Shown: in pieces, positions 3,171 through 31,081 of the stretch
How the letters are laid out: every line of letters begins with the position of its first letter
How positions within the stretch are numbered: position 1 is the stretch's first letter
Assembly: GCA_046542915.1 (NCBI GenBank)
Contig: JBKHAI010000001.1
Coordinates: 1-34,670 of the forward strand
Length of the DNA stretch: 34,670 nucleotides
Direction of reading: 5' to 3'
Source of the DNA: Minisyncoccota bacterium
Lineage (GTDB): Bacteria > Patescibacteriota > Minisyncoccia > Phycocordibacterales > CSBR16-193
Program-made: the position numbers and the translations under genes
Notes under the pieces: model-generated
What the model saw: the letters and a program-made list of their open reading frames with translations, nothing else
Database searches by the model: none
What the model was told of the DNA's origin: nothing

Positions 3171-3491
3171 CTAGTTATTATCTAACCCTCTCTTTATCTC
3201 CTCAATGTGTTCTTTCATCTCTTTTTTGAAATCGGAGACCACTTCCTCCAAGATCTCGTCATAATTGGGAAGTTTTTCCCTTAAAAAGTTCTCTGTTCTC
3301 TCGGCGTCCTCTTGTTCCCTCACCTTTTCAAACTCATCACGCTCTTCTTCGGAGAGCTCTTCCAAGACACGAAGAGTTATCTTCTTTAACAGAGTCTCGG
3401 TCATCGCCTGAAGAATTCGTGACTGTGCTTCTTCCGGCAGGTTTTTAAGATCAAACTCTTCTAAGAGATCGTTTTTTTGTTGTTCTTCCAT
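3171..3491 (-). CDS. Small acidic helical protein, copy A (partner of the giant membrane protein)
   Basis: 106-aa ORF, rich in E/D/K, with no Trp or Cys and no hydrophobic segment. It lies 33 bp downstream of the 805-aa gene. The first 97 codons are identical to the ORF at 7502..7822 apart from one synonymous SNP. It may belong to a Patescibacteria DUF family, which I cannot verify. Confidence 0.7.
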   Translation of the reverse strand: MEEQQKNDLLEEFDLKNLPEEAQSRILQAMTETLLKKITLRVLEELSEEERDEFEKVREQEDAERTENFLREKLPNYDEILEEVVSDFKKEMKEHIEEIKRGLDNN

Positions 3492-3504
3492 AGTAAATAA
3501 ATTA
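3199..3504. repeat. Direct repeat R1, copy A (306 bp, 1 mismatch versus 7530..7835)
   Basis: Base-by-base comparison at offset 4331. The only difference is g at 3471 versus a at 7802. Identity breaks at 3505/7836 and at about 3198/7529. The block covers 5' codons 1-97 of the small gene plus 13 bp upstream. Confidence 0.9.
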
Positions 3505-3524
3505 ATTAATTATAGATCAAAATT

Positions 3525-5942
3525 TTATTTGGCAAGTTCGTTGAGTTTTTCTTCTTCAAAAATATTTCCGTGATCTTCTTTCAATAAAGCGATTTTTTCC
3601 TGCAATCTGTTCTTTACCCAATCGTATTCTTTACTACCCAGCTTATCTTTGTCTTCCATTTCCCTCAATACTTGCTCGTGAACCTTTATGTCCCCCAGAG
3701 AGCTTTGAATTTCACCCTCTTTTTCCAGATAACGAGCAGGATCTTCATTGACAGCTTCCAGATCAATAAATTTATTCGGATCAAAGTGCTTTAAGTTGCC
3801 TTTATAATGCATATCGCTCACGTTGCCTTCGGTATCATATTCAAAACCGAATTCTTCAAACTCAAAACCGCTTCCTTCTTTTCGGACAAACTCTTCATCA
3901 ACGGGGTCTTTCTCAACACCGCTTTGCTCTGATGGGTCCGGTTCAGAAGTTTCCCCCGACTCAGGAATATCTTGGTGTTTTAAAGGATCGGTTTCTTCTT
4001 CAGCTTCTTCTATTGGAGAGAACTTAGTTTCCGCAGAACTTTCTTTTACCATCTGTTCCTCGGCAATTCCTTTTTCATATAAAATGTTATCAACTTTTTC
4101 CGATGTTAGTCTTTCTCCGGGGTTCTCTTTGACCCACTCCTCTATTATTTCATTGTTTCTAACGATACTCTCCATAGCTTCTTGACTGAGATCGTTGGAA
4201 GATTCAAGCATACTTCCGATCAGTCCGTCTTTTGCCAAAGGTGAAAAATCTATTTTCTGTCCGGCTTGTACCATATCAATGCTATCAACTCCTTCCATTC
4301 CGAAATTAGACGGGTCTTCTGCGATCTTGTCCTTTATTTGATCTATTAAATGGGTCTTTTGAGCTTCGTTAAGATCCTCAAACTTATCCCCGAGATTATC
4401 TTTCAGGAAAGATTCGGTGGTACTCCAAACCGACTCGCCGGGTTTGATCTCAACACCAAATTCGATCCCGGAACTGCCGGCCGTCGCCATCTCCGGGTTC
4501 TTTATCCATTCCGGTTGCTCATCAAACTCTTGGACATCAAAACGATGTTCTTCAAACTGAGACTCATTAACGACTCCCTCACCAGAAACTCCGGCTTGAG
4601 AAGTATCTTGTGGCCGGGGAATATCCTGGTGATTTATAGGTTCATCTTCTTCAGTCTCTTCTATTGGAGAAAACTCCGTAGATTCCGGTTCGGATCCCGC
4701 TGTGGCCAAAACATTGCCTTCATAAGCGTCTGAAGAACCAGGGATGGAGTCATTTTTGTTCTCAGGATGAGACTCCGTAGGAACTTCACCGGGGTCAAAC
4801 AGACTGGATATTCCATCTATCGCTTTACTGACGGCCCCGGACCCCACCAAAACTCCGGCGGTACCGGCCAAGATATAACGCCTATATCTTTCACCTTTCT
4901 TTCGGCCTTCCAGTTCAAAGAGTTTGTTATCAAGTTCGGCGTTTCCGGAATTAAGTTTTTCTTCAAGACCTTTAGCAAAAAGTTCTGACACTTCTTTTTC
5001 CGTCTTTTTTTCCTGACTTTTCTTTATCAATCCTTCCAGACCGACCGCGGTAGCGGCACCACTTAACACTCTCTGAGCTCGGGACCCGGCTATGGCACCG
5101 GTTGCCAAAGCGGCACCGGCAGCACCGCCTAAGGCGCCGGCTCCGGCCCCCAGTCCTAAAAGACCGGCGGAAATACCCAGTTTATACCTTAACGGCAGAC
5201 CCCGATACCAGTTGGCTACTTTTTTACCGGTCTCTTTAGCTTTTTCTTTTAAAGAATCCGGTTTTTCGTTTAAAGCAGCTTCCAGTTTGGCTTCGTGGAG
5301 GTTGTTGGCTTCCAGGGTCAGGGTTTCTGTCATTATCCTTTCTATTTCCTTATCTCTATCCTCCTTTGAAAGTGACGGGTCTAGAGACTCTATTCGCTCT
5401 TTTCTTCTGTTTTTCAGAGCTTCAATATATTCTTGCTTTTTTTGAACATATTCTTGACTAGGACTTTCTTTGTTAACCTGATCAAGGTCCATTTTTGCGA
5501 ATTCTTTTCTTTTTTCTTTAAGTATCTCTTCCGAACTTCTCTCCTCTTCCTGAGATTCGCCCGGGGTTTCCTGAACTACCTCTTCTGACCCTTTTTCTTT
5601 TTCAGTCTTCTCATCACTCTCTTTGCCTTCAGTCTTCTTTTTTTTCTTCCTCATTTCTTTGTAATTATAAACGGCGTCTTCAAGTTCATTCAGTCTTTTC
5701 TGTTTTTCTTCAGGCAAAAATTTTCCTTTTCCTTGGGCAAACCATTCTTTTTTCAAGTTATCGAGCTCTTCTTGGTCCTTCTTATTCTTTTCTCTTTTTT
5801 CCACATCCTCTTCCATTTCCTTTCTAACCTCTTCCATATACTCTTGTGTGTCATCGTCTCTACCACGATAAGCGGTTTCGGCGTGGATCTGAGGGTCTTG
5901 TTTTTCCTCGTTGGGATTATTTACGGGTGGTTTTTCACTCAT
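3525..5942 (-). CDS. Giant acidic membrane-anchored protein, paralog A (charged N-terminus, glycine-zipper TM core, LysM-like module, C-terminal F-rich module)
   Basis: 805-aa ORF. The N-terminal ~200 aa are K/E-rich. The core WYRGLPLRYKLGISAGLLGLGAGAGALGGAAGAALATGAIAG…YILAGTAGVLVGSGAVS is hydrophobic and Gly/Ala-rich. A very acidic C-terminal half follows. 167 aa are identical to the 1040-aa paralog. Confidence 0.75.
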   Translation of the reverse strand: MSEKPPVNNPNEEKQDPQIHAETAYRGRDDDTQEYMEEVRKEMEEDVEKREKNKKDQEELDNLKKEWFAQGKGKFLPEEKQKRLNELEDAVYNYKEMRKKKKKTEGKESDEKTEKEKGSEEVVQETPGESQEEERSSEEILKEKRKEFAKMDLDQVNKESPSQEYVQKKQEYIEALKNRRKERIESLDPSLSKEDRDKEIERIMTETLTLEANNLHEAKLEAALNEKPDSLKEKAKETGKKVANWYRGLPLRYKLGISAGLLGLGAGAGALGGAAGAALATGAIAGSRAQRVLSGAATAVGLEGLIKKSQEKKTEKEVSELFAKGLEEKLNSGNAELDNKLFELEGRKKGERYRRYILAGTAGVLVGSGAVSKAIDGISSLFDPGEVPTESHPENKNDSIPGSSDAYEGNVLATAGSEPESTEFSPIEETEEDEPINHQDIPRPQDTSQAGVSGEGVVNESQFEEHRFDVQEFDEQPEWIKNPEMATAGSSGIEFGVEIKPGESVWSTTESFLKDNLGDKFEDLNEAQKTHLIDQIKDKIAEDPSNFGMEGVDSIDMVQAGQKIDFSPLAKDGLIGSMLESSNDLSQEAMESIVRNNEIIEEWVKENPGERLTSEKVDNILYEKGIAEEQMVKESSAETKFSPIEEAEEETDPLKHQDIPESGETSEPDPSEQSGVEKDPVDEEFVRKEGSGFEFEEFGFEYDTEGNVSDMHYKGNLKHFDPNKFIDLEAVNEDPARYLEKEGEIQSSLGDIKVHEQVLREMEDKDKLGSKEYDWVKNRLQEKIALLKEDHGNIFEEEKLNELAK
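4826..5328. repeat. Direct repeat R2, copy A (503 bp, apparently 100% identical to 10021..10523)
   Basis: Aligned by eye at offset 5195 with no mismatch seen. Flanks diverge immediately (4825 t versus 10020 c; 5329 g versus 10524 t). The block encodes the identical 167-aa TM core. Confidence 0.9.
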
Positions 5943-6016
5943 ATTAAAAGCAGTTTAATACATTGGTAATTTAAATACACTATATCAAAAAAAATAAAAA
6001 AAATACTAGAGATCGA

Positions 6017-6583
6017 TCACTTTTGGTAAATTTGTTTGAGTTCTTTTTTGCTATCTTCATAACGAGGTATTGCTTCAGCGACCAGAGACCAAAAATCTTT
6101 TGAATGGTTCAGATGCTTTAAGTGGCAAAGCTCGTGAACTATAAGATAATCCTGAAGTTCTTCTTTCAAAAAAACTATCTTGTAATTGAAATTCAAGTTC
6201 TTTTTGGAAGAGCAACTCCCCCAACGACTCTTTTGGTTGCGTATTGATATTCTGTTGAAGTTGAAACCATAAAACTCATTCCAGTAGGAGACCTTCTTCT
6301 CTACCAGTTTTCTGGCTTTTTCTTTATGTTCAAGATAATGCTCCGGATTCCGAACTTCTATGTCGGGATCTGTATTCTTGGTCCTTTGCGAGAGTTTCTT
6401 TCTAACCCAATCCATCTTTTCATTTAAAAAAGAGATCGCTCTCTCTTCCGTCACATACATTGGCCGAGTTACTAGAACATCTCCGTTGGGCGATATGGTT
6501 ATCCGAAGGTATTTAGAGCGCCGATGCCGACGAAAGAAAACCTTTATATCACCCTTTTCATCTCTTAAAAACAGCTCCTTCAT
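6017..6583 (-). CDS. YgjP-like / DUF45 (M48-WLM type) metal-dependent hydrolase
   Basis: 188-aa ORF with the C-terminal signature LIVHELCHLKHLNHSKDFW (HExxH…H…FW) characteristic of the DUF45/YgjP family. It starts 4 bp after the upstream nuclease gene. Confidence 0.7.
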   Translation of the reverse strand: MKELFLRDEKGDIKVFFRRHRRSKYLRITISPNGDVLVTRPMYVTEERAISFLNEKMDWVRKKLSQRTKNTDPDIEVRNPEHYLEHKEKARKLVEKKVSYWNEFYGFNFNRISIRNQKSRWGSCSSKKNLNFNYKIVFLKEELQDYLIVHELCHLKHLNHSKDFWSLVAEAIPRYEDSKKELKQIYQK

Positions 6584-6587
6584 TGTC

Positions 6588-7439
6588 TTAATGGATCATA
6601 TAAAGGTCTTGTTTGTACTCTCCGACTCCAACATATTCGGCCTCTCCGTTCAGGATCTTTTCATAGGGTTTACAGGCAAAACATCCTCCGCGGGGACATT
6701 TAAATTCATTTTCTTCTCTGGCCTTTTTAACCTCTCGCGCCACTTTCAATACGTCCTCTTTACTCTTTTGCGGATCGGGGAGTTCAATCTCTCTGGGGGC
6801 ATCCTCTGAATCTACATACCAATAATATGCACCGCTTATCGGTCTTTTTTGAAGCGCTTTAAGTAGCAGAAAATAAATAGGGAGTTGTAAGGAACCCTCT
6901 TTTTCTTCGTTCTTGCCGGTCTTAAAATCAAGAACCCGGATGCTGTCATCCTCTTCCCTGTACTCCAACCAGTCTATCTTACCGCAAAGAATTATGTTCT
7001 CCTCTTCTGAGAGATAGAAGTTGGGCAACATTCCGCCGTCTTTTAATTTTACGGTTTTGTTGGAAAGCGGTCCGGGGTTTTTCATTACCCTTTCTATCAT
7101 CTCTTTCCCTCTTTCTTTCATTTCTTCTTCCTCCTTCTTGTCCGTAAACCCTCCTTTCTTGCCGGAGACCTTACCCCAGGCATCCTCATAATGCTCTAAG
7201 AGTGGTTGCTCCATTCGCTCCTCCGCTTTAAATCTTATCAGTCCTTCCAAAACTTCATGAACGGCTTGCCCTAGTGAAAGCGCCGGATTGACGATGTTCA
7301 TTTTTCGGCCGGTTTTGGGGTCTTTATAAACATTATGAAGATAATAAAGCCGAGGGCACTTCAAGAAATCCCCCATAGAAGAATGCGAGACCCAAACAGC
7401 CGAGTATTTGTCTTTGTTTTTTTCCATAAAGATCCACAA
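6588..7439 (-). CDS. PD-(D/E)XK nuclease, RecB/AddB/Cas4-like with putative Fe-S cysteines
   Basis: Motifs seen: GQAVHEVLE, GKIDWLEY, VLDFKTGK (D…D/ExK) and LQLPIYFLL (QxxxY). There is one N-terminal Cys (FLKCPRLYY) and a C-terminal CPRGGCFAC cluster. The track start is a TTG; the ATG at 7427..7425 (MEKNKDK…) is the more likely start. Confidence 0.7.
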   Translation of the reverse strand: MWIFMEKNKDKYSAVWVSHSSMGDFLKCPRLYYLHNVYKDPKTGRKMNIVNPALSLGQAVHEVLEGLIRFKAEERMEQPLLEHYEDAWGKVSGKKGGFTDKKEEEEMKERGKEMIERVMKNPGPLSNKTVKLKDGGMLPNFYLSEEENIILCGKIDWLEYREEDDSIRVLDFKTGKNEEKEGSLQLPIYFLLLKALQKRPISGAYYWYVDSEDAPREIELPDPQKSKEDVLKVAREVKKAREENEFKCPRGGCFACKPYEKILNGEAEYVGVGEYKQDLYMIH

Positions 7440-7501
7440 TTTTAAGCAAGGTCAAAAGAAATTCTGACTTAAGCTACTTTGATCTCATTTAACAACTTTG
7501 A

Positions 7502-7822
7502 TCAGTTTTCTTCAAGCCCTTTCTTGATATCCTCAATGTGTTCTTTCATCTCTTTTTTGAAATCGGAGACCACTTCCTCCAAGATCTCGTCATAATTGGG
7601 AAGTTTTTCCCTTAAAAAGTTCTCTGTTCTCTCGGCGTCCTCTTGTTCCCTCACCTTTTCAAACTCATCACGCTCTTCTTCGGAGAGCTCTTCCAAGACA
7701 CGAAGAGTTATCTTCTTTAACAGAGTCTCGGTCATCGCCTGAAGAATTCGTGACTGTGCTTCTTCCGGCAGGTTTTTAAGATCAAACTCTTCTAAGAGAT
7801 CATTTTTTTGTTGTTCTTCCAT
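7502..7822 (-). CDS. Small acidic helical protein, copy B
   Basis: 106-aa ORF. It is identical to copy A except for the last ~9 residues (…HIEDIKKGLEEN versus …HIEEIKRGLDNN). It lies 21 bp downstream of the 1040-aa gene. Confidence 0.7.
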   Translation of the reverse strand: MEEQQKNDLLEEFDLKNLPEEAQSRILQAMTETLLKKITLRVLEELSEEERDEFEKVREQEDAERTENFLREKLPNYDEILEEVVSDFKKEMKEHIEDIKKGLEEN

Positions 7823-7835
7823 AGTAAATAAATTA
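7530..7835. repeat. Direct repeat R1, copy B
   Basis: See 3199..3504. Confidence 0.9.
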
Positions 7836-7843
7836 GGTTATGA

Positions 7844-10800
7844 TTAATTTTTTATAAATGATGCCAAGGTTTTTTTAACCTCTTGTAGTGAATCTTTGTC
7901 CAACCTTTTCTCCTCCACATTTAGCTCCTCTGAGCCTGAGCCGGCATTTATTTTGCCGTCCAAAGAAAGATCGATCCTAAACTCTTTAGTTTCACCTTCG
8001 GATACTCCCTTTTCTATGGTTATTGAAACCCCACCTTCATCTTTTCTTTCTATTTCCAAATTATCTTTGCTCACCTTACTGTCATTTAAGGAGTCCTCTC
8101 CCAAAAAATCCTTGAGTGTTCTTTCCGGTTTATCCCCGGGCATAGCGTCATCATTCCAGTTCTCAAAATAAAGATCGGCTAGAGCTTTCTTTGTTCCACC
8201 CTCAAGCTCCGTGGAATCAATAACACCGAGTAGATGCTCCACCGTTTCCTCGTTGCCTTCAGAAATACCGTATCTTTCCATTATTTCCTTAGTTTTTGTG
8301 CCTTCTAAAACACCTTCTTCCGTCGTTGCCTCCCCCGAAATTATTTCTTCCACTTTATCAGATGTTAAAAGCTCGGAAGGGTTTTCTCTGACCCACTCGG
8401 CTATCTTTTGATTATTTTCAATGATCCTGTCAATGTCTCCGTTACTAAGATTACTTGCCGACTCAAACATTCTGGTGATCGCTTCTTCTTCCTTCATTAT
8501 TGTAGAGAGGTCAATTCTCTGCCCCGATTGGACAATGTCTATATTATCTACTCCTTCCATTCCGAAACGATCGGGGTCTTCGGCGATCTTGTCTTTTATA
8601 GCATCCAGCAAGTAAGTCTTTTGAGCCTCATTAAAATTATCGAACCCTTCAAAGTGACTTCCGATCTTTTCCTCGACAGCTTTCCAGACCGAACCACTTT
8701 CTTTAACTTCCGCTACATAGGTCTCGGTTGGATCTTCAAATTGAATTTTGGTATCTGTTTCTTTTTCCGGTTCTAATTTTTCAAAAGTCTCCGTATCCGC
8801 CTCTTGGGGCACCATCTCCGGTGCCGGTTCGGACTTTACTTTTTCTTGCTCTTTTAAGATATCTTCCGGTGGCTTTGGAACCGGTGGAGCTTCCGGTTCC
8901 TTTGGTTCAGGTTCGGAAATTGACGGCTCCGGTTCAGTTTCAGTGAAGACCTGTGGCTCCGGCGCTTTCTCGGAAGTTTCAACTTCTTCTCTGACAAGCT
9001 CCATCACGTCACGCGACGAAGATAACATCCTTTCCATAACTTCTCCGTTCGCCAAAACCGTTGAAAGATCAAGTTTTTGCCCCGGTTGGACAATATCTAT
9101 GTCGTCCACCCCCTCCATTCCGAACTGTTCCGGATCTTCAGCTATCCTTTCAAGCACCTGAGCCGTTAAGTACTCCTTTTGAATTTTAGTTAGACCGTCA
9201 AAATACCCCAACTCGTTTAGTTTGGCTTCTGTAACATCCCAGACTGAATCCCCGGCTTCTATCTGAGTTACAAATTCCTCGTTATAAGATGGAGTCTCTT
9301 CCACGGTCGTATCATCAGGAGCGGGTGGCTCATCAGGATCAAGGTCTTGTTTTGGGTCTTCGTTTTGAAGATCGTCCGAAGGATCAGGAACTTCTTCCGG
9401 TTGAGTTTCTTCTTTTTCTGCGGATAATTCCTCTTCACTTGCAGCTTGTGGTATTTCCCGAGGTTCCGGTTCGGCAATTTCCACCTCCGACTTTTCTTCA
9501 ACCGTCAGGTCATTCTTCAGTTCATCTATTTTTAAGATGTTTTCATACTTTTCAATCAAAGAATTCTTACCCTCCTCCAAACGGTCTTCCAACCATTGAT
9601 ATTCCGCCCCCTCACTCAACCCCTTCTCCTGCACCCTCTCAAGCGCCTGTTGATATATCTTTAATTCCTTAATAGAATCTTCCAGTTTCACTTTCTCGCT
9701 CAAACCAAAATCATCCGCCTCCTCGGCAACAGAAAAATCAATGAACTTGGCGGCGTCAAAATTCATAAAATTGCCGGCAAAATCCAGATCCGTGACGTTA
9801 CCCTCATCGTCTTTGACAAAATTGAGTCTTGTAAAATCAAAGGAGCTCTCTTTCTCCGCTTCTAAAGATCCGGTTTCTTCAAGCTCCTCCGCCGAGCCGC
9901 TTGGAGAGTCTCCTTCGGGAACACCGGCATAAGCTTCGGATGAACCAAAGGCATCTTTCATTTTACCAAGGATCTCTTCCTGGTTTCCGCCGAAAAGATC
10001 CGCCATACTTGAAAAGACCCTACTGACGGCCCCGGACCCCACCAAAACTCCGGCGGTACCGGCCAAGATATAACGCCTATATCTTTCACCTTTCTTTCGG
10101 CCTTCCAGTTCAAAGAGTTTGTTATCAAGTTCGGCGTTTCCGGAATTAAGTTTTTCTTCAAGACCTTTAGCAAAAAGTTCTGACACTTCTTTTTCCGTCT
10201 TTTTTTCCTGACTTTTCTTTATCAATCCTTCCAGACCGACCGCGGTAGCGGCACCACTTAACACTCTCTGAGCTCGGGACCCGGCTATGGCACCGGTTGC
10301 CAAAGCGGCACCGGCAGCACCGCCTAAGGCGCCGGCTCCGGCCCCCAGTCCTAAAAGACCGGCGGAAATACCCAGTTTATACCTTAACGGCAGACCCCGA
10401 TACCAGTTGGCTACTTTTTTACCGGTCTCTTTAGCTTTTTCTTTTAAAGAATCCGGTTTTTCGTTTAAAGCAGCTTCCAGTTTGGCTTCGTGGAGGTTGT
10501 TGGCTTCCAGGGTCAGGGTTTCTTGAAAGATCTCTTTTTTACGGGCTTCTTTTTGTTCATCGGAGATATCTTGTTCGTCCAGTTCTTTTAATTTAGTATT
10601 TCGATATTCCTTCAGAGCTTCCAGGTACTCTTCTTTCTTTCTGAGATACTCCGGGTTTTCATTCTTTTTATAGTCTTCTTTGGTTGCGTTGATCTGATCA
10701 CCTTGACCTTTCCAAAAATTAACTTTGTTTCTTTTTTTGACCCATAATTCCGCCTCTCTATCAACTTCCGCGAATTTCTGGCGTTTTTGATATAAAAGAA

Positions 10801-10966
10801 CGTCCGGAGTAATTTCCTTACCTTCATTATCTTCTTTTATTTGTTCCGGGTCTTTTTCGTACCCTTGCACTTCGGAGAGATCTTCGCTATGTCCTTTCAA
10901 ATCGGGTGGAGTTTCTTTTTTTATCCCATCGATTGGTTCTACGTGGTTTTTTTCATTGAGGTCCAT
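7844..10966 (-). CDS. Giant acidic membrane-anchored protein, paralog B (same TM core, F-rich module, two LysM-like modules, extra C-terminal domain)
   Basis: 1040-aa ORF that starts 7 bp after the ATPase stop codon. Its 167-aa core is identical to paralog A, while the remaining modules are rearranged and diverged. It contains Pro/Glu-rich linkers (EPEPSISEPEPKEPEAPPVPKPPE). Confidence 0.75.
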   Translation of the reverse strand: MDLNEKNHVEPIDGIKKETPPDLKGHSEDLSEVQGYEKDPEQIKEDNEGKEITPDVLLYQKRQKFAEVDREAELWVKKRNKVNFWKGQGDQINATKEDYKKNENPEYLRKKEEYLEALKEYRNTKLKELDEQDISDEQKEARKKEIFQETLTLEANNLHEAKLEAALNEKPDSLKEKAKETGKKVANWYRGLPLRYKLGISAGLLGLGAGAGALGGAAGAALATGAIAGSRAQRVLSGAATAVGLEGLIKKSQEKKTEKEVSELFAKGLEEKLNSGNAELDNKLFELEGRKKGERYRRYILAGTAGVLVGSGAVSRVFSSMADLFGGNQEEILGKMKDAFGSSEAYAGVPEGDSPSGSAEELEETGSLEAEKESSFDFTRLNFVKDDEGNVTDLDFAGNFMNFDAAKFIDFSVAEEADDFGLSEKVKLEDSIKELKIYQQALERVQEKGLSEGAEYQWLEDRLEEGKNSLIEKYENILKIDELKNDLTVEEKSEVEIAEPEPREIPQAASEEELSAEKEETQPEEVPDPSDDLQNEDPKQDLDPDEPPAPDDTTVEETPSYNEEFVTQIEAGDSVWDVTEAKLNELGYFDGLTKIQKEYLTAQVLERIAEDPEQFGMEGVDDIDIVQPGQKLDLSTVLANGEVMERMLSSSRDVMELVREEVETSEKAPEPQVFTETEPEPSISEPEPKEPEAPPVPKPPEDILKEQEKVKSEPAPEMVPQEADTETFEKLEPEKETDTKIQFEDPTETYVAEVKESGSVWKAVEEKIGSHFEGFDNFNEAQKTYLLDAIKDKIAEDPDRFGMEGVDNIDIVQSGQRIDLSTIMKEEEAITRMFESASNLSNGDIDRIIENNQKIAEWVRENPSELLTSDKVEEIISGEATTEEGVLEGTKTKEIMERYGISEGNEETVEHLLGVIDSTELEGGTKKALADLYFENWNDDAMPGDKPERTLKDFLGEDSLNDSKVSKDNLEIERKDEGGVSITIEKGVSEGETKEFRIDLSLDGKINAGSGSEELNVEEKRLDKDSLQEVKKTLASFIKN
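10021..10523. repeat. Direct repeat R2, copy B
   Basis: See 4826..5328. Confidence 0.9.
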
Positions 10967-10973
10967 AATATAC

Positions 10974-13724
10974 TTATATTACTTCTTTATATTTCATTTG
11001 AATGTCTTCTTCAACGTCTTCCCGAGGGCGTCCGTATCTTATATAAGACAGTTGTTTAAGGTCCTCCACTTGACTTTGATCTCCCTCTTGAGGAGGAAGA
11101 GGGTTGAAATTAAAGGGTCTACTAGGATAACCGTTAACCAAGATCTTTCCGACGGCATGGTAGTTCTTTAAGTTCATAATATTATTTGTGGAGAACTCGG
11201 GCTCAAACTGAGAAGAAAGAAACTCGGCGTCTTCATATCCCACTCTAAACGAAACCATTGATCCAACGTTACCGAATATGGAGTCACGGATCCCGTCATC
11301 GAGCTGAGAAATGAACTGATGGAACACGCTCAAACAAAGCTTGTACTTTCTGGCCTCCGATAAAATAGTGTTAATGGAATCGGTAGTAACGTTCTGAAAC
11401 TCATCAATATATAAATAAAATGGTGGCAAATCTTTAGAAACCTCACGAGAAAGAGCTGCCATCAATATTTTACCAACCAAGATAAGACCCAACAAGTGAG
11501 AATTAATATCTCCTAGTTTTCCTTTAGAGAGGTTAACCAGTAAGATCTTTCGATTATCCATAACATCCTTAAAATCAAAAGATGATCTTTCCTGAGCTAT
11601 TATCGGTCTCATAATGTCATTGGCAGTAAAAACATCAAATTTACTGGTTATATAGGGAACAATATTCTCAAGCTGTGACTCACCTCCAGCCTTTGTGGCT
11701 ATTTCGTTCCAAAATTGGTTCACTACCGGGTTTTTGCATTTAGATAATTTGTGATCTCTGAATTCCTTGTTAGACAAAACCTTGGATATATCCAAAAGGG
11801 TACTGTTCGTATCCGGATCCTCAAGAGTGAGCATTGTCGCGTTCCTGAAGTACTGTTCAAATATTGGCCCCATCGCTTCGGGATTACTTGAATAAAGTTT
11901 CTGAAAGATACTAAAGAGTTCATTAACAACAAAAGTTTTTTGCTCGGGACTTTCTTTATCATACTCAAGCATATTCAAAGCCATTGATCTTTTTGTATAA
12001 CCGGGCTCAAAATATATCACGTCATCAAACCTTTCCTTCGGGATCCTTTGCAGTACATCATCAATATCAGATCCATGAGGGTCTATCATACAAACTCCGT
12101 CACCATTTTGAATATCCTGAATGATCATGTTCTTTAGAAAGTTGGTTTTACCAGTACCGGTCTGCCCTATTGTGTAAAGGTGTCTAACTCTGTCTTCTTT
12201 GGACATATAAACTTCGGTCTTTTGATTCCTGTGCTCATTTATGCCTAAAAGTATGCCGTTTCTATGCATATCAGGCGGAGGAGGCGCCGTTTTATGAGTG
12301 GTCTGTTTGAACTCCGGAGACGAGACAGTGCTTAAAGAAGTGTGCATCATAGAGGTCAGTTCTTTAATGTTCAACGGTAAGGCGTTCTTTCTGTTGAAGC
12401 GCCGGAATATGAAATCTTTGGATAGGCGGTCAAGTTTCTTACCTTTCAATCTCTTAAACTCAAGCTTGTTGCCGGTTGAGTTCTCAAACTGATTGAACGA
12501 GGCCTCTATTTCGTCAAGCATTAGATCACATCTTTCCTTGCTGTCAGCGGAAGAGATCACCCTGATATTAGTGGGAATGATCATGGCGGACATCTTTTTC
12601 TTTACTTCCTCTATCACTACTTGGTCAGGTTGGCGCGGAGACTCGTCAACTTCTTTTTTATTATTACCGGAAATTTCTTTGAATATACCTTTTAAGACAT
12701 TAAGCGTATCCCAGGAAATATTCTCTGCCGCTTCTTTTAAGGAATAACCCTTTTCCAGTTGCGTTAATATCTGTCGGTTGCGATTTGAGTGTTCTCCGGT
12801 CCCGGGATTAAAAACGAACTGAAGAGCAACCCCTTCCCTTTTTTCCGCTATCTTGGAAAAGGCGTTTAAGATCACATTCATAGGATCATGATCAAATTCC
12901 TCGTAACTTTTTAAAGGCAATGAAGGGTCTTTTTTAAACTCAGCAATTGATCCGGCCACAACTCCTTTTTCTACAAAGATGTTGTAGTCATTCTTTCTTT
13001 CTATTATTTGGGCCTCCGGAAAAACAGAAAGGAGCTGCTTTTCAAAGACCACTGTCTTCTCATCCGGAATAGCGGCATACATAACAATGTTACTACTTTC
13101 TTCAGAAGTGGCTATTTCAAAAGTGAAAAAACCCCCTTCCTTGGCACTAACCCCCGCAACGGAATGCATTCCGGCGTAAAACTGCTCCATCGAGGAAACT
13201 ATCTCTTTAAAGGTCTTTTGTTTATCTTCATCAGAATCTTTTTTCGGCAAAGATATCTCAAAAAGGGTCATTTTAAAAGAACGCCAGAGCTCCGTCTTTT
13301 CTTTTAATCCCTTGATAGAATGGCCGGTCTTTAACCACTGAACCAAAACTCGGTGAAGATCATCTTCAAGATGATAATCCTGCATCTTTTCAACCAAAGA
13401 GAGGGTGTTATGAACTCCCTTCTCTTCCATTGTTTCCAAGAGTTTGCTTATTTTAATGTCGTGATCTTCCGGTTCTATATCCAAAAGACGGGAAAGTTTA
13501 TCGGCTTCCGTCATCTCGGCATTTTCTGAGAGAACCTCGGAAGCCGGTTTTTTTTGGTATTCCTTGACCTTTTCTACACTGGCGTCTTCTTTTTCTTTTT
13601 TTTCCGCGGCTTCTCCCAATTCTTCTTCTTTTTTCGCCAACTCTTGACGCAGGAAATCAAGTTCTTCCTGGGGAGTTTCAAAGCTTTTTTTAGTTTCTCG
13701 GTCTCCTAACGACTCTTGATTCAT
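10974..13724 (-). CDS. TraD/TrwB/VirD4-like (FtsK-HerA superfamily) P-loop ATPase with an uncharacterised ~480-aa N-terminal region and no TM segments
   Basis: 916-aa ORF. Walker A is HLYTIGQTGTGKTNF (about nt 12141..12167) followed by CMIDPHGS. Walker B is FYLYIDEFQNV (about nt 11391..11425). The C-terminal GNVGSMVSFRVG…AEFL resembles coupling-protein C-terminal domains. I saw no hydrophobic helix in the N-terminal half. Confidence 0.65.
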   Translation of the reverse strand: MNQESLGDRETKKSFETPQEELDFLRQELAKKEEELGEAAEKKEKEDASVEKVKEYQKKPASEVLSENAEMTEADKLSRLLDIEPEDHDIKISKLLETMEEKGVHNTLSLVEKMQDYHLEDDLHRVLVQWLKTGHSIKGLKEKTELWRSFKMTLFEISLPKKDSDEDKQKTFKEIVSSMEQFYAGMHSVAGVSAKEGGFFTFEIATSEESSNIVMYAAIPDEKTVVFEKQLLSVFPEAQIIERKNDYNIFVEKGVVAGSIAEFKKDPSLPLKSYEEFDHDPMNVILNAFSKIAEKREGVALQFVFNPGTGEHSNRNRQILTQLEKGYSLKEAAENISWDTLNVLKGIFKEISGNNKKEVDESPRQPDQVVIEEVKKKMSAMIIPTNIRVISSADSKERCDLMLDEIEASFNQFENSTGNKLEFKRLKGKKLDRLSKDFIFRRFNRKNALPLNIKELTSMMHTSLSTVSSPEFKQTTHKTAPPPPDMHRNGILLGINEHRNQKTEVYMSKEDRVRHLYTIGQTGTGKTNFLKNMIIQDIQNGDGVCMIDPHGSDIDDVLQRIPKERFDDVIYFEPGYTKRSMALNMLEYDKESPEQKTFVVNELFSIFQKLYSSNPEAMGPIFEQYFRNATMLTLEDPDTNSTLLDISKVLSNKEFRDHKLSKCKNPVVNQFWNEIATKAGGESQLENIVPYITSKFDVFTANDIMRPIIAQERSSFDFKDVMDNRKILLVNLSKGKLGDINSHLLGLILVGKILMAALSREVSKDLPPFYLYIDEFQNVTTDSINTILSEARKYKLCLSVFHQFISQLDDGIRDSIFGNVGSMVSFRVGYEDAEFLSSQFEPEFSTNNIMNLKNYHAVGKILVNGYPSRPFNFNPLPPQEGDQSQVEDLKQLSYIRYGRPREDVEEDIQMKYKEVI

Positions 13725-17351: not shown

Positions 17352-17918
17352 ATGATAGGTTATCTAAAAGGAAAGGTGTTAAATATTGGCGGCTCGTGGA
17401 TAATTCTGGATGTCGAAGGAGTTGGTTACAAAATTCATTTAGAGCAAGACCTGCGGCAAAGACTAAAAGAAGGTGTCGGTCTTTCTTTGTGGACTCACCT
17501 AGCCGTCAGAGAAAACGCTCTGGATCTCTACGGCTTTGAAAGCCGAGAAAGTCTTGTTGTTTTTGAGACCCTCCTGTCGGTTTCGGGCATAGGACCGAAG
17601 TCAGCTCTGGCTATTTTGGACACCGCCTCCCCTTCCTTTTTAAGGAAAGCCGTGATCTCCGGAGAGTCCGCTGCACTTACCAAAATAGCGGGGATCGGCA
17701 AAAAAAACGCTGAAAAGATAATACTGGAGCTTCGAGGTAAGTTTGAACTTAAGGACCAAGAGGAGGCCTTTGAAGGATCCGACACAGAGGTTTACGAAGC
17801 GTTGGTAAGTTTGGGATACTCCGCCAAAGAAGTCCGTGAAGCCCTTTCACAACTTCCGAATGACGGCAGTGATATGGAGATCCGCATAAAACAAGCATTA
17901 AAAATATTAAGTTCTTGA
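17352..17918 (+). CDS. ruvA: Holliday junction branch migration complex subunit RuvA
   Basis: MIGYLKGKV… N-terminus, HhH motifs (LLSVSGIGPKSALAIL and LTKIAGIGKKNAEKIILEL) and a C-terminal domain III. The gene overlaps the next gene by 4 bp. Confidence 0.9.
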   Translation: MIGYLKGKVLNIGGSWIILDVEGVGYKIHLEQDLRQRLKEGVGLSLWTHLAVRENALDLYGFESRESLVVFETLLSVSGIGPKSALAILDTASPSFLRKAVISGESAALTKIAGIGKKNAEKIILELRGKFELKDQEEAFEGSDTEVYEALVSLGYSAKEVREALSQLPNDGSDMEIRIKQALKILSS

Positions 17919-19204
17919 TCATGCTACGTTTCTTAAGATCTTTAATACCCTCTAAGTTGTTGAACTTGATCCGTTCTCCCTATCATTTTTTATTAGCCTG
18001 CGCCGGAGCTTTCTTTTACAAACATCCTTCAAAAGACCTGACCGTTATAGGAGTGACCGGCACTAAAGGAAAATCCACCACTGTGGAACTATTAACGGCT
18101 ATCTTGAACTCGGCCGGATATAAAACAGCTTCCACCAGCACGATCAGGTTCTCAATAGGAAATAAAATACAAGAGAACAAATACAAGATGACGATGCCGG
18201 GAAGGTTCTTTTTACAGAAGTTCTTGTCGGAAGCGGTGGAACAGAACTGCGCTTACGCGGTGCTGGAGATGACCTCCGAGGGAGCAAAACAGCATCGGCA
18301 CGCCTTTGTTCATATGAACGCCTTGGTTTTTTTAAATTTAAGCCCGGAACATATAGACTCTCACGGCTCTTATGAAAAATACAAAAAAGCCAAACTTTCT
18401 TTGGCCAAAGCCCTGGAAGGGTCACCAAAGGGCGGTCGGGCTATTATTGTAAATTCCGACGACAAGGAGGCGCCGGATTTTCTTTCCGTAGATGTAGAAC
18501 ACAAGCTCACCTTCTCTTTAAACCACGCCGAAAAAATAAAAGACACCGAGGAAGGTCTTTCTTTTGTTTACAACGGCGAACACATCGTTTCTTCCTTAAG
18601 AGGCCATTTCAATGTCTATAATATCTGTGCCGCTTTGACGGTGACAGAGTACTTCGGAATACCAACTCAAACGGCAAAAAGAGCGATCGCTTTAACCGAT
18701 AGAATTGAAGGCCGAGTGGAAGAAGTGAAGATCAGTCAAAACCAACCTTTCAAAGTATATGTTGATTATGCCCATACCCCTGATTCACTAAAAGCCCTAT
18801 ATGAGACCTTTAAAGATCAAAGGTTAGTCTGTGTCTTAGGTAGTGCCGGTGGAGGCCGTGACCGGTGGAAAAGACCAGAAATGGGAAAGCTGGCCGAAAA
18901 ATATTGCAAATACATAATTCTGACCAACGAAGATCCTTATGATGAAGACCCCCGGGAAATAGTTGAGGACATAAAAAAAGGAATGGAAAAACAGAAACCG
19001 AAAATAATAATGGAAAGAAGAGAAGCCATAAAAAAAGCCCTTAAAAAAGCCCTGTCGCTTTCTCAAGATAAAAAAGATGGCCGCCAAACGATCGTTCTTA
19101 TAACCGGAAAAGGAACCGACCCTTTCATTATGGGGCCTCACGGTTCCCGAGAACCTTGGAGTGATACCGGCGTAACCATTGAAGAGTTGAAGAAGGTCTT
19201 ATAG
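17915..19204 (+). CDS. murE: Mur ligase, MurE-like (UDP-MurNAc-L-Ala-D-Glu:amino acid ligase), short form
   Basis: P-loop VIGVTGTKGKSTT and the MurE-type motif DYAHTPDSLKAL. Where MurE carries DNPR, this protein reads ILTNEDPYDEDPREIV. At 429 aa it lacks most of the usual N-terminal domain. Confidence 0.7.
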   Translation: MIMLRFLRSLIPSKLLNLIRSPYHFLLACAGAFFYKHPSKDLTVIGVTGTKGKSTTVELLTAILNSAGYKTASTSTIRFSIGNKIQENKYKMTMPGRFFLQKFLSEAVEQNCAYAVLEMTSEGAKQHRHAFVHMNALVFLNLSPEHIDSHGSYEKYKKAKLSLAKALEGSPKGGRAIIVNSDDKEAPDFLSVDVEHKLTFSLNHAEKIKDTEEGLSFVYNGEHIVSSLRGHFNVYNICAALTVTEYFGIPTQTAKRAIALTDRIEGRVEEVKISQNQPFKVYVDYAHTPDSLKALYETFKDQRLVCVLGSAGGGRDRWKRPEMGKLAEKYCKYIILTNEDPYDEDPREIVEDIKKGMEKQKPKIIMERREAIKKALKKALSLSQDKKDGRQTIVLITGKGTDPFIMGPHGSREPWSDTGVTIEELKKVL

Positions 19205-19219
19205 ATAAATATAAATAAA

Positions 19220-20152
19220 ATGCCGGAATTACCAGAGGTCCAAACCACGGTCACCGAACTGAACGATCAACTGGTCGGTTTATCCATCCACGGCGTTTGG
19301 AGTAGTTATGATTCAAAATACTACCAGGGTAAAAGAAACATTAAAGACAGAGATCATTTTAAAAGATTTAAAAAGGAGACCCTCAACAGGACCATAGTGA
19401 CGATCAACCGGATCGGGAAATATATACTCATAAGACTTTCGGGTGATCTGACCATTTTGATCCATATGAAAATGACAGGACATCTTCTCTACGGCAGGTA
19501 TCGAAAAGCCTACCGCAAGGAAAAAGAAGAGAAATTTGCCGACTGGATAGCCCTGGAAGAAGGTCCCCTGAAAGAAGATCCTTTCAACCGCTTCATCAGG
19601 CTTGTTTTCACACTCTCAAACGGAAAACATCTGGTCTTGTCCGACGCCAGAAAATTCGCAACCGTCTGTTTTTTTGACACTGATGACCCTCCCAAGGCGG
19701 TAAAAAGACTGGGTCCCGACCCCTTATTAAAAGATTTTACTTTTAAGGTCTTTTTGGAGATCCTGCCTTATCATTCACAAAAACCCATAAAAAGTGTTCT
19801 GTTAGACCAAGAGGTCATCGCCGGGATCGGTAACATATATTCTGATGAAATACTATGGAATTCGGGTATCCATCCGATGAGTACTACAGGAGCGATCCCG
19901 CAAAAAGCCCTTTTTGAGCTATATCGCTCTATGAAAGTCATATTAAGACAAGGAGTTAGGTTAGGTGGCGACTCTGTTTCCGATTACAGGAATCCCAGTG
20001 GAGCAAAAGGGAATTACCATTATCATCATAAAGCCTACCAAAACACCGGATCGTCTTGTAGCCGCCGAGGATGCAAAGGAGTAATAAGGCGTTGTGTTAT
20101 AGGAGGAAGAAGTACTCATTTCTGCGACCAGCACCAGATACTTTATAAGTAA
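19220..20152 (+). CDS. mutM: Formamidopyrimidine-DNA glycosylase (Fpg/MutM)
   Basis: MPELPEV N-terminus with the catalytic Pro2/Glu3 context, the H2TH region (LLDQEVIAGIGNIYSDEILW) and a C-terminal zinc-finger region (GRSTHFC…). Confidence 0.9.
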   Translation: MPELPEVQTTVTELNDQLVGLSIHGVWSSYDSKYYQGKRNIKDRDHFKRFKKETLNRTIVTINRIGKYILIRLSGDLTILIHMKMTGHLLYGRYRKAYRKEKEEKFADWIALEEGPLKEDPFNRFIRLVFTLSNGKHLVLSDARKFATVCFFDTDDPPKAVKRLGPDPLLKDFTFKVFLEILPYHSQKPIKSVLLDQEVIAGIGNIYSDEILWNSGIHPMSTTGAIPQKALFELYRSMKVILRQGVRLGGDSVSDYRNPSGAKGNYHYHHKAYQNTGSSCSRRGCKGVIRRCVIGGRSTHFCDQHQILYK

Positions 20153-20153
20153 C

Positions 20154-20645
20154 TTACTCATGAAGTAATTGAAAGATCGCGATCCCGCAAGCTACCGCCA
20201 CGTTCAATGATTCTTTCTTGCCTTTCATAGGGATCTCTATAACTTTATCGGTCTTAGCAATGATACTCCCTGAAATACCTCTTACCTCATTGCCTACGAT
20301 CAAGGCAAAAGAAGAAGGATCAACACTGCGGTGATCAACGGAAGAAGAATGCTGTTCAAGCGCCAGTATTTCCACGTTCTTTTTTTGTAAGGCAGTGATC
20401 AGAAAACTGATATCCTTAAAATACTGCCAAGGAACGTTTTCCTCTGCCCCTAAAGATGTCTTTTCCAGGTCCTTTCTCTTTTTACCGAATCTATCTATCG
20501 GTGAAGGTGTATAACCGGTCAAATAGACCTTATCCACCCCTGCGGCGTCAGCGGTTCGCAACATAGATCCGACGTTATAAACGCTTCTGATATTATGCAG
20601 GATCAAATAACCGGTTTTTTGTTTTTCATTCCTTTGACTAAACAT
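20154..20645 (-). CDS. SpoU/TrmH-family RNA 2'-O-methyltransferase
   Basis: SPOUT motifs NVGSMLRTADAAG, LIVGNEVRGISG and IPMKGKKESLNVAVACGIAIF. Confidence 0.8.
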   Translation of the reverse strand: MFSQRNEKQKTGYLILHNIRSVYNVGSMLRTADAAGVDKVYLTGYTPSPIDRFGKKRKDLEKTSLGAEENVPWQYFKDISFLITALQKKNVEILALEQHSSSVDHRSVDPSSFALIVGNEVRGISGSIIAKTDKVIEIPMKGKKESLNVAVACGIAIFQLLHE

Positions 20646-20699
20646 AGATGTTTTAGTATATTATTGGGGCAAGGATCTTGTTTTGATCTTATTGAATTT

Positions 20700-20772
20700 C
20701 CGCCCATAGCTCAGCTGGTAGAGCAACGGCCTTTTAAGCCGGGGGTCCTAGGTTCGATTCCTAGTGGGCGGA
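20700..20772 (+). tRNA. tRNA-Lys (anticodon UUU)
   Basis: Hand-folded cloverleaf: acceptor CCGCCCA/TGGGCGG; D arm GCTC-AGCTGGTA-GAGC; anticodon arm (A)CGGC-CTTTTAA-GCCG(G); 5-nt variable loop GGGTC; T arm CTAGG-TTCGATT-CCTAG; discriminator A. No CCA is encoded. Confidence 0.9.
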
Positions 20773-20812
20773 CAAAGACACGATAATAATTCTTAAGAAC
20801 ATTCCATTTTCT

Positions 20813-21526
20813 CTAGAGTTTCAAGAGTAATTTCTCCAAAGAAATATGAAGAGGGGTCTTCCCTTTCCTGCTCCGCAGGGAGGCGCTTAAAAGTTCTAAG
20901 GAGATCTCTTCCAGTTCTCTGTTTTGAAAATTTTCGGCATAGCGTTTAGCTTTTTTATAAGGATAATCTTTCATTCCGGCCTCTTGGGCGGACAGAGAAC
21001 AAGAAGCGGCTTGCATACTTTTTATTATCCAAGTAATGACAGCCAATAACTCTTCGGGGTCTTTCCCGAGCATCAGAGCGGTCTGAAAAAGCTTCCATGC
21101 TTTTGGGGCGTTTTTCTCTCCCACCGCGTCGGCAATGTCGAAATTATTAAAAACTTCTTTTTTCTCTTCTTTTTCTTCGGTTTTTTCTGTGATGTAGGCC
21201 TTGTCTTTTATCTTTTTGAAATAAGCCGGCGAGATGTCCAACTCTGAAAAAATAAAGACGTGACCGGAATCCGCCATTAGATCAAGATGTTTAAGAATGA
21301 AAGCGGAATATTCTTTGTTCTTTAAGACAGCTCTTAAAAGCACGATGTGCTTTTCATCAAAGAGTCCGCTACTAAACAGAAGCTCCTCCAGATCAGAAAC
21401 ACCGAAACTTTCCTCGTCCAAAGAAAAAACTTGGGTATTGGGGCGCTTCTTTTTAAGGGAGTCGGTTATCTCTTTTATTCTTTTTTTTCTTTTTGTAAAA
21501 GAATTTCCGTATAAAAGTATTAGCAT
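20813..21526 (-). CDS. holA: DNA polymerase III delta subunit (HolA)-like, short form
   Basis: 237 aa. The N-terminus (LILLYGNSF…) and GLFDEKHIVLLRAV fit the HolA domain I pattern. Its position directly downstream of polA supports the call. Similarity is judged by eye only. Confidence 0.45.
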   Translation of the reverse strand: MLILLYGNSFTKRKKRIKEITDSLKKKRPNTQVFSLDEESFGVSDLEELLFSSGLFDEKHIVLLRAVLKNKEYSAFILKHLDLMADSGHVFIFSELDISPAYFKKIKDKAYITEKTEEKEEKKEVFNNFDIADAVGEKNAPKAWKLFQTALMLGKDPEELLAVITWIIKSMQAASCSLSAQEAGMKDYPYKKAKRYAENFQNRELEEISLELLSASLRSRKGKTPLHISLEKLLLKL

Positions 21527-21529
21527 ATA

Positions 21530-23902: not shown

Positions 23903-24338
23903 AAAATATTTTTAGAAGCCGCTTTTTTTCCGATACTACCTCAAAATTGATCTTTAGAGAATCCGGTGGTATGACCGAACAGACATTTTCCGGCCATTCC
24001 AAACATATTAAATTGTCGGGGTCTTTTAGTTTTTGTGGCCAATCGATAGTATTCATATCGTCTGACGAATTCAGTCGGTAAGCATCTATGTGAATAAAAC
24101 AAGGGAAACCGGGACTACTGGTCTCGTACCGCCTTTCTATAACAAAGGTAGGGCTAATGACCCTCTCCGAAATTCCCAAGGCCTCAGCCAAACCTTTGGC
24201 AAAAACCGTCTTTCCGCTACCCAACTCTCCCGATAAAGCCACAACCGAAGCGGCTTTATCTTTTTTTCTGATCATCTCTTTTAAGACCGATCTCGCCTGC
24301 CTTTTTGTTTCTTCTTCGTTTTTCACGATAACCTCCAT
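23895..24338 (-). CDS. tsaE: tRNA t6A37 biosynthesis ATPase TsaE (YjeE)
   Basis: LSGELGSGKTVFAKGLAEALGI…VISPTFVI…HIDAYRL signature. The gene overlaps the polA start by 8 bp. Confidence 0.85.
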   Translation of the reverse strand: MEVIVKNEEETKRQARSVLKEMIRKKDKAASVVALSGELGSGKTVFAKGLAEALGISERVISPTFVIERRYETSSPGFPCFIHIDAYRLNSSDDMNTIDWPQKLKDPDNLICLEWPENVCSVIPPDSLKINFEVVSEKKRLLKIFYD

Positions 24339-24432
24339 TTTTCTATTCTAACAAAAAAAACAGACCGATACCTTAGATGATACTAACGGCCGAACGGGAC
24401 ACCGATTTAAAAAAGGTCTTAAAACTGCTACA

Positions 24433-26127: not shown

Positions 26128-26223
26128 ACCAAAAGTGGTGGCTGCTTGCACGAGATGCCAAGTTAAGCAATAATAAGGTCAGTTTGAAAGAAAATAAACC
26201 TTCAAACTAATATGATCTCCTTA

Positions 26224-26359
26224 CCTTACACCTCCAAACAACGGGTTTAGCTTTTGGTTACTCACTGAGGATAACCCCAGAGGTGATCCAGAGTGTCCTT
26301 GTTCGTAACTTGCTATGAAAATGTTGTTTGGAGATGCAAAATAAGGATGTGCTTATTTT
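26224..26359 (+). ncRNA. Candidate structured RNA element (identity and strand unknown)
   Basis: Hand-found nested helices: CTCCAAACAAC (26232..26242) pairs with GTTGTTTGGAG (26323..26333); inner helix AGC…GTTAC (26249..26261) pairs with GTAAC…GCT (26305..26314); outer helix CCTTA (26224..26228) pairs with TAAGG (26342..26346). The outer helix competes with the hairpin AAAATAAG-gatgtg-CTTATTTT (26338..26359). Confidence 0.3.
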
Positions 26360-26427
26360 CGACGATAACTTTAAAGGAACAAATAAAATAAATATTGTCA
26401 ATGCAAAAGTAGCATATTAATTTTTAT

Positions 26428-27423: not shown

Positions 27424-27445
27424 TTACCCTTAAAATAAATAAAAT

Positions 27446-27976
27446 ATGTCAGGACATAATAAATGGTCAAAAGTTAAACACAAAAAAGCGGCCACAGACG
27501 CTCAAAAAAGCAAACAGTTCTCAAAACTGTCAAAGTTAATAACTATGGAGGTAAAAAAAGCCGGAGGAGACACCGAAAACTCCGGAGTAAGAAAAGCAAT
27601 AGAACAAGCCAAAGCGGTGAATATGCCTAATGACAACATTGAAAAAGCTATAAAAAGGGCCAAGAACTCCGATGAAAAAGATATGGAGAAAGTGACCTAT
27701 GAGGCCTATGGACCGGAAGGAGTTGCTATGATCATAGAAGGATTAACAGACAACAGAAATAGAACCGCCGCGGAGGTTAAAAGTATTCTTTCAAAACACG
27801 GAATTGAGCTTGCGGTCCCGGGTTCCGCCACTTGGGCGTTTAATAAAAATGAAGGAAGTTACGAAACAAAAACCCCGGTTAAGATCACGGGATCCTCTAA
27901 AGAGAAGTTATCTTCTATAATAGAAAGTCTGGAAGAAAGTGAGGATATCCAAGAAATATATACAAATGCCGAATAA
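27446..27976 (+). CDS. yebC: YebC/PmpR-family protein, compact 176-aa form
   Basis: MSGHNKWSKVKHKKAATDAQKSKQFSKL… and YEAYGPEGVAMIIEGLTDNRNRTAAEV match YebC. The C-terminus (…IESLEESEDIQEIYTNAE) also matches. About 60 aa of the usual middle subdomain are missing. Confidence 0.85.
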   Translation: MSGHNKWSKVKHKKAATDAQKSKQFSKLSKLITMEVKKAGGDTENSGVRKAIEQAKAVNMPNDNIEKAIKRAKNSDEKDMEKVTYEAYGPEGVAMIIEGLTDNRNRTAAEVKSILSKHGIELAVPGSATWAFNKNEGSYETKTPVKITGSSKEKLSSIIESLEESEDIQEIYTNAE

Positions 27977-28463: not shown

Positions 28464-28499
28464 AAAGTTGCATTTTTTAAAAAATTTGATAAAAATATA

Positions 28500-28706: not shown

Positions 28707-28727
28707 ATCAGTACTTATCGTTTTAAG

Positions 28728-28752: not shown

Positions 28753-28842
28753 ATATAATAAGCATCGCCTATTGACCAAATAACTGAATGATCTTATTAT
28801 TAACGTCTCAAGCAAGCTCTTCTATTAATTTTCATAATAAAA

Positions 28843-31080: not shown

Positions 31081-31081
31081 T

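Follow-up and report, generated by a model that had tools for sequence, protein, structure and literature searches.

The DNA analysed here, referred to below as the window, is a stretch of 34,670 nucleotides (nt) from a contig of an NCBI metagenome-assembled genome (MAG) of Candidatus Paceibacterota. Its minus strand carries two large paralogous genes, named A and B, each followed by a small DUF5663 gene of its own, and a paralog with its partner is called a cassette below. In the reading direction the gene order is a VirD4/TraD-like ATPase gene, B, DUF5663, a gene for a PD-(D/E)XK nuclease (PDDEXK), a YgjP-like gene, A and DUF5663 (Table 1). Both paralogs contain a block of 503 nt that is the same base for base in the two genes, and a second block, nearly identical, is shared by the two DUF5663 genes.

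A and B are complete open reading frames (ORFs) with ATG starts, and no family matching either of them was found in Pfam, NCBIfam or PADLOC searches. Paralog A consists of a charged N-terminal region, a hydrophobic core, a linker, one domain of beta-alpha-alpha-beta plus helices and a C-terminal FxF module, whereas in B a charged N-terminal helical region and the core are followed by the FxF module, then by two domains of beta-alpha-alpha-beta plus helices and a C-terminal extension. Outside the block the two proteins are thus built of shared modules in different order, with 24-47% amino acid (aa) identity. All hydrophobic segments of A and B lie within the 503-nt block, and Gly/Ala-rich hydrophobic segments are visible in the core sequence. 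The initial annotation had described a 'glycine-zipper membrane core'; the membrane core stands, while no glycine-zipper family matching the core was found in a Pfam search of the window proteins (E <= 0.01). The AlphaFold2 model of the core is of low confidence, with a predicted local distance difference test (pLDDT) score of 53. The charged residues of the core proteins fit the positive-inside pattern, and the topology predicted from the sequence places the N-terminus inside and the acidic C-terminal region outside. A profile of the N-helical region and the core matched 285 cluster representatives at E <= 1e-10 and, at the stricter threshold of E <= 1e-30, 75. The matched proteins are ~400-1500 aa long, the core sits after a variable N-terminus, and it is the best-conserved part of the family at the protein level.

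The repeated domain of the C-terminal region measures ~130 aa, carries a GDSVW...GQxIDxS motif and occurs at aa 490-640 of A (window 4023-4475) and at aa 560-709 and 745-895 of B. It is predicted with confidence to fold as beta-alpha-alpha-beta followed by three helices (pLDDT 82). No sequence match to it was found in the PDB, and Foldseek gave no match at E <= 0.001. An identity as LysM domain was rejected, as the domain has no Pfam LysM profile match, PDB sequence relative or Foldseek match, and the likeness is limited to the beta-alpha-alpha-beta order and the motif.

The two copies of the block are in one frame, and both translate to the peptide ETLTLEANN...GSGAVS, as initially annotated. 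The perfect match extends over exactly 503 nt; beyond it, bases compared at the same offset are 20-40% identical. By the Nei-Gojobori method the paralogs show no synonymous divergence in the block (dS = 0), against a dS of 3.3 in the N-terminal flank, of 2.1 directly after the core and saturation in two ectodomain modules. The base-for-base match including the synonymous sites, and the merely loose similarity of the coding flanks, both claimed in the initial annotation, were therefore confirmed. The block makes up about 16-21% of each gene, the remainder of which is saturated, and chance cannot account for an identity of this length. No 31-mer of the window is repeated other than in the 503-nt pair and in the DUF5663-gene pair. 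A structured RNA in the block was considered and rejected, as an Rfam scan of the window returned a tRNA alone.

The second block, which had escaped the initial annotation, is 306 nt long with a single mismatch (3471/7802). It is composed of 272 perfect nt (3199-3470 = 7530-7801), the mismatch and 33 further perfect nt (3472-3504 = 7803-7835), and it extends from 13 nt upstream of the ATG to about codon 98 of the DUF5663 genes, the copies diverging abruptly ~28 nt before the stop codon. In the sister MAG described below the same block is 96% identical between the copies and has the same borders as in the window, and the 3' ends of the DUF5663 genes preserve A-type and B-type signatures across strains. 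The identity had been thought to be restricted to one functional module; this does not hold, since the adjoining DUF5663 genes are homogenised as well.

Related loci were obtained from a genome scan (six loci) and from a metagenome scan (at least one single-copy locus). The sister lineage is represented by GCA_046546015.1 (loci L001 and L002) and GCA_046538935.1 (L010), and a more distant genome by L003. The sister lineage is ~96.7% identical to the window at the nt level, and its ATPase is 98.7% identical in aa with a dS of 0.092, while the ATPase of L003 is 74% identical in aa to that of the window. L003 and L010 both show the two-cassette gene order of the window. Most module-bearing genomes of the survey have a single cassette. 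The N-termini of the window paralogs pair with their counterparts in L003 (A-A'' 132 bits against 52 for A-B''; B-B'' 103 bits against 62 for B-A''), and as they keep orthology across genomes, the duplication predates the window, sister and L003 lineages.

The cores behave differently from the N-termini. In L010 the A' and B' cores have the borders seen in the window and are 83.1% identical over 504 nt, and the paralog cores of L001/L002 are 86.7% identical over the 472 nt available. The sister cores A' and B' are each 56-57% identical in aa to either L003 copy and 77% identical to each other. In L003 itself the paralogs are 67.9% identical in nt in their cores and 71.9% in their DUF5663 genes, a level that protein constraint alone would explain. 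On sequence comparison the N-termini thus group by ortholog and the cores by genome in the window clade, a discordance that is the classical mark of concerted evolution in a limited segment.

The time of the last event can be bounded. A background divergence of 3.3% predicts ~17 differences per 503 nt since the sister split, against 0 observed, so that the last event would be younger than ~18% of the time since that split. The initial annotation had named relatives with a core as diverged as its flanks as the sign of a one-off event with no recurring pattern. What was found is intermediate, with cores of 83-87% identity beside unalignable flanks in the nearest relatives and of 68% in the distant L003; the perfect identity is thus recent in the window lineage and lies atop an older homogenisation with the same borders. 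The older homogenisation took place in the window-sister ancestor, or there were repeated events, and the newer event belongs to the window lineage.

Uniform divergence after duplication is ruled out, and recent patchy gene conversion, as originally proposed, is the best explanation of the dS contrast, the discordance of core and flanks, the diverged cores of the relatives and a clustered mosaic described below. With good confidence we regard gene conversion as the process behind these data. The two ancient tandem cassettes downstream of the VirD4/TraD-like ATPase, each encoding a large acidic membrane-anchored protein and a DUF5663 protein, would have exchanged sequence by non-reciprocal homologous recombination, which would have overwritten the 503-nt core and 306 nt of the DUF5663 gene. 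The tracts end where the nt similarity of the paralogs ends, as expected if heteroduplex cannot extend into saturated flanks, and their borders are the same in the window and in the sister. The core, being the most conserved part of the family, would offer enough identity to seed recombination repeatedly. RuvA, RuvB and RuvC, all encoded within the window, also count for conversion.

The number and direction of the events can be approached through the sister copies. A' and B' of L010 differ at 85 sites in the block, and the window agrees with A' at 44 of them, with B' at 36 and with neither at 5. Another 16 sites are alike in both sister copies and different in the window. Sites of A type and of B type are clustered along the block (25 observed runs, 40.6 expected; z = -3.55, permutation p = 3e-4, longest run 13), a statistic somewhat inflated by adjacent multi-nucleotide changes. 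The first 28 nt of the block and positions 216-271 are A-type, and positions 115-131 and 401-476 are B-type. This pattern fits several short tracts in both directions, and it also fits one heteroduplex with patchy repair; the present identity probably arose in one of these two ways.

Several observations weigh against this account. The window block is a clean copy of neither the A nor the B type of the sister, and the mosaic could equally have come about if the sister copies gained patches after an ancestral homogenisation. Such patching does occur: the A' core of L010 (18526-19029) and that of L002 (1-471) differ by 13 substitutions within 24 nt, with no frameshift, while L010 and the neighbouring contig L001 are 99.6% identical. 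GCA_046546015.1 moreover breaks inside the core, and its contig ends (L001 15800-15872, L002 1-73) differ at 4 of 73 overlapping nt; both findings suggest several core alleles in one population. The window core is also 10-12% diverged from both sister cores, with a dS of 0.19-0.29 and a nonsynonymous divergence (dN) of ~0.10, against a background dS of 0.09 and dN of 0.006; ancestral polymorphism or imported alleles therefore contribute too.

This excess, with a dS two to three times the background, is what would be expected if a foreign allele had been imported, one core being replaced from another strain or species and the second then taking its sequence from the first or from another import. 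The 16 sites common to both sister copies and different in the window agree with such an import, as do neighbouring segments that were replaced by distant alleles, among them aa 316-505 of B (see below). The window has a resident variant at 80 of the 85 sites at which the sister paralogs differ, unlike a foreign allele, and conversion between resident copies would still be required for the identity; we consider an import unlikely as the explanation.

The repeat was checked independently in Logan assemblies (k = 31) of run SRR11308339 and of a second run, SRR19844286. Four contigs of the first run (L013, L018, L014 and L017) are 100% identical to the window, and 6 of their 8 ends fall within a repeat block, at exactly 30 nt (k-1) from its border, so that the assembly graph branches at these borders in the raw data. 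The lengths of L017 and L018 and the sizes of their partial products (Table 1) had been predicted before the look-up, and both contigs were recovered. L015, from the second run, begins at base 7559, as L014 does. The other end of L014, at 5801, is not at a repeat; it lies within the strain-variable N-terminus of A, where there is no repeated 31-mer, and may be due to population heterogeneity or low coverage. Two copies certainly exist, as L014 joins cassette B to the start of A and L010 spans both with diverged cores.

These contigs bear on whether the identity could be a product of assembly, either by bubble popping that merged similar cores, with one consensus then threaded through both positions, or because there is only one copy. 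The window is a MAG contig, the sister MAG GCA_046546015.1 is broken in the core with the differing contig ends mentioned above, and an exact protein look-up of the expected 503-nt repeat contig and of the DUF5663-block product gave no match, so that the Logan contigs bear out the borders of the block and not its interior. An artefact nevertheless appears improbable: the diverged cores of both copies are held in one contig of L010, L014 connects the N-terminus of A with cassette B, and the four identical Logan contigs stop exactly where true shared sequence predicts. Bubble popping, besides, merges sparse differences only, so that the copies would by our estimate still be ~97% or more identical and conversion would still be required. 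Since the expected repeat contig was not found and assemblers merge sparse differences, the safe statement is that the A and B core copies are identical, or very nearly so.

The direct repeats are in frame, as first noted, and a deletion of 5195 nt between them would leave an open 748-aa chimera made of the N-terminus of B, the core and the C-terminal region of A. The proposal that such deletion serves surface-protein variation found no support, as no deletion, chimeric or reciprocal variant was seen among the related loci and the variation between strains consists of replacement of segments adjoining the core. Most of A and B is 95-100% identical between window and sister. The juxtamembrane segment of B, aa 316-505 (window 9452-10020, minus strand), is only 36% identical in aa to the sister and 42% to the distant L003 and, judged from these alignments, looks like a wholesale allele replacement. 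In A, aa 1-100 (window 5640-5942) are strongly diverged from the sister, and the linker after the core, aa 375-455 (window about 4580-4825), differs as well, the sister A' having an insertion of ~100 aa there. In L004 (MAG JBNJEF010000006.1, 5157-7454) the protein at the B position, of 765 aa, retains the B-type N-terminus, the FxF module and the C-terminal extension and is without the membrane core, the repeat domains and a DUF5663 partner, while the protein at the A position has 1469 aa and two repeat domains. The A and B genes are thus recombination mosaics in general.

Such mosaics could belong to a selected cassette system, in which the core and DUF5663 blocks serve as recombination anchors for ectodomain swap or deletion between two expression sites. 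In both cassettes the variable region lies between the homogenised blocks, a core-core deletion stays in frame, module order varies between paralogs and genomes (with the coreless B ortholog of L004), and strains differ strongly in the segments that adjoin the core. Cassette variation is known by silent, truncated or promoterless donors that feed one expression locus, whereas here both genes are complete, with their own starts and partner genes, and neither is silent. None of the related loci shows a chimera or a deletion, the ectodomains of A and B outside the replaced segments are as conserved between strains as given above, with no swapping visible, and a single cassette is the rule in the module-bearing genomes. 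We therefore hold a selected system of this kind to be improbable as well. The remaining candidates are dismissed. Had the whole cassette been duplicated again in recent times, the flanks would not be saturated; a mobile insertion into both genes is incompatible with a block that forms the conserved core throughout the family; and purifying selection alone is unable to fix synonymous sites.

Gene conversion would have acted here on genes whose neighbourhood is itself conserved. Every related locus has a DUF5663 gene after that of the core protein, and a homologous ATPase gene is adjacent wherever the contig allows, in either gene order; the ATPase adjoins the core protein in L003, L004, L005, L006, L008 and L009. 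The VirD4/TraD-like ATPase (DUF8128), the large core-containing membrane protein and DUF5663 (window 3171-13724; loci L003-L009 and L016) are a conserved and undescribed gene trio. The ATPase passes the Pfam cut-offs narrowly (TraG-D_C 26.5 bits, cut-off 22; TrwB_AAD_bind 23.2 bits, cut-off 20.5) and scores 16-60 bits against the NCBIfam TraD/VirD4 models, whose cut-offs are 250-800. No virB4 or other channel gene of a type IV secretion system was found in the annotation of its neighbourhood; the neighbours are housekeeping genes, for a Na/Ca exchanger, MliC, peptidase C39, YkuD, RuvA, a Mur ligase, PolA and a CitMHS transporter. Orphans of this kind are frequent in the Patescibacteria: among 5,713 VirD4 homologues reported there, merely 148 are near virB4 (PMC12102498). 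The window ATPase resembles these orphan homologues in matching TraG-D_C and TrwB_AAD_bind with no virB4 nearby, and differs in lying far below all NCBIfam coupling-protein cut-offs. In a literature search a link of orphan VirD4 homologues to the core protein and DUF5663 was not found described, and DUF5663 and DUF8128 were not mentioned.

The window as a whole is origin-proximal chromosome with dnaA, dnaN, polA, ruvA, ruvB and ruvC, and is not a mobile element. Besides the features of Table 1, the part from 17352 to 34055 carries RuvC, YebC, RuvB, TsaE, PolA and RuvA. At 176 aa the YebC ORF is short, and it overlaps ruvC at the GTG start of the latter. The gene for a class A penicillin-binding protein (PBP) contains an imperfect direct repeat of 41 nt (28962-29002 and 30819-30859, 73% identity), which is probably chance or weak internal similarity. 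The PDDEXK ORF is 283 aa long, and the called gene probably starts later, giving 279 aa.

Table 1. Coordinates of the genes, repeat blocks, Logan contigs and other features. Positions refer to the window unless another locus is named.
Feature	Position	Strand	Remarks
Paralog A, 805 aa	3525..5942	-	NCBI MFP4539306.1, ACLFNN_00020
Paralog B, 1040 aa	7844..10966	-	NCBI MFP4539310.1, ACLFNN_00040
Perfect 503-nt block, copy in A	4826..5328	-	aa 206-372; sequence match, Logan contig L017 end
Perfect 503-nt block, copy in B	10021..10523	-	aa 149-315; sequence match, Logan contigs L013 and L018 ends
DUF5663 gene, A partner	3171..3491	-	106 aa, Pfam
DUF5663 gene, B partner	7502..7822	-	106 aa, Pfam
Second block, copy A	3199..3504	-	Logan contig L017 ends 30 nt inside
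Second block, copy B	7530..7835	-	Logan contigs L014, L015 and L018 end 30 nt inside
Sister A'	L010 17777-20674		965 aa, ~100-aa insertion after core
L013	20773..10494		Logan contig, SRR11308339
L018	10050..7806		Logan contig, SRR11308339, 2245 nt, 734-aa partial product
L014	7559..5801		Logan contig, SRR11308339
L017	4855..3475		Logan contig, SRR11308339, 1381 nt, 442-aa partial product
VirD4/TraD-like ATPase, 916 aa	10974..13724	-	Pfam TraG-D_C, TrwB_AAD_bind; DUF8128 in precomputed hits; first gene of conserved module
PD-(D/E)XK (Cas4-like) nuclease	6588..7439	-	Pfam; between cassettes
YgjP-like metallopeptidase-fold gene	6017..6583	-	Pfam; between cassettes
dnaA	32697-34055	-	origin-proximal set in window 17352-34055
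dnaN	31342-32448	-	origin-proximal set
Class A PBP	28843-31080
PilB-like T2SSE ATPase	24433-26127
tRNA-Lys	20700-20773

Segmental gene conversion between paralogs is a known process. In the outer-membrane adhesin paralogs of Helicobacter pylori the 3' segment encodes the membrane-embedding part. In the pairs babA/babB, homA/homB and sabA/sabB this segment evolves in concert within a strain through RecA-dependent gene conversion, while other parts follow the allelic relationships between strains, and chimeras are possible (PMC3960876). The babA/babB and homA/homB pairs are the closest described case: these too are paralogs of surface proteins, and in the window clade the membrane core groups by genome and the N-termini by ortholog. 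The present case differs in its phylum, which belongs to the Candidate Phyla Radiation (CPR), in its unrelated protein family, in having Gly/Ala-rich hydrophobic helices instead of a beta-barrel, in the tandem arrangement of the copies 5.2 kb apart and in the homogenisation of a small partner gene along with the core, and the chimera is here a prediction from the sequence. The tufA and tufB genes are old paralogs that are near-identical including their synonymous sites and are kept so by intrachromosomal recombination. They share with A and B a near-identity of old paralogs maintained by recombination, which in tufA/tufB extends over the whole gene and here over only the fraction of each gene given above. 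In the Neisseria pilE/pilS and Borrelia vlsE systems, many silent and promoterless partial cassettes are combined with one expression site. There, as here, conserved blocks around variable coding segments permit non-reciprocal transfer, whereas the window holds two complete genes that look expressed, with no sign of ongoing switching.

The process itself is thus a textbook one, found here in an unstudied family and phylum. Any selective benefit would have to be sought in the proteins: it is speculation that the core and DUF5663 contact shared partners, and that conversion keeps both copies compatible with them while the exposed parts diversify. It might further be supposed, though we think it unlikely, that the ATPase, the core protein and DUF5663 form an undescribed CPR envelope apparatus, whose exposed part is under diversifying selection and whose blocks are kept as anchors for exchange, deletion or replacement of the variable extracellular region, within the genome and from other strains. 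If this were true, an envelope apparatus with recombination anchors would serve an episymbiont as a system of surface variation. The finding draws attention to an uncharacterised trio, consisting of an orphan VirD4-like ATPase, a large membrane protein and a DUF5663 protein, and it indicates that homologous recombination actively reshapes a pair of fast-evolving envelope proteins in an uncultured CPR bacterium with a reduced genome. Should the exposed region mediate host contact or be a target of phages, the locus would serve well as a marker of interaction specificity at the strain level.

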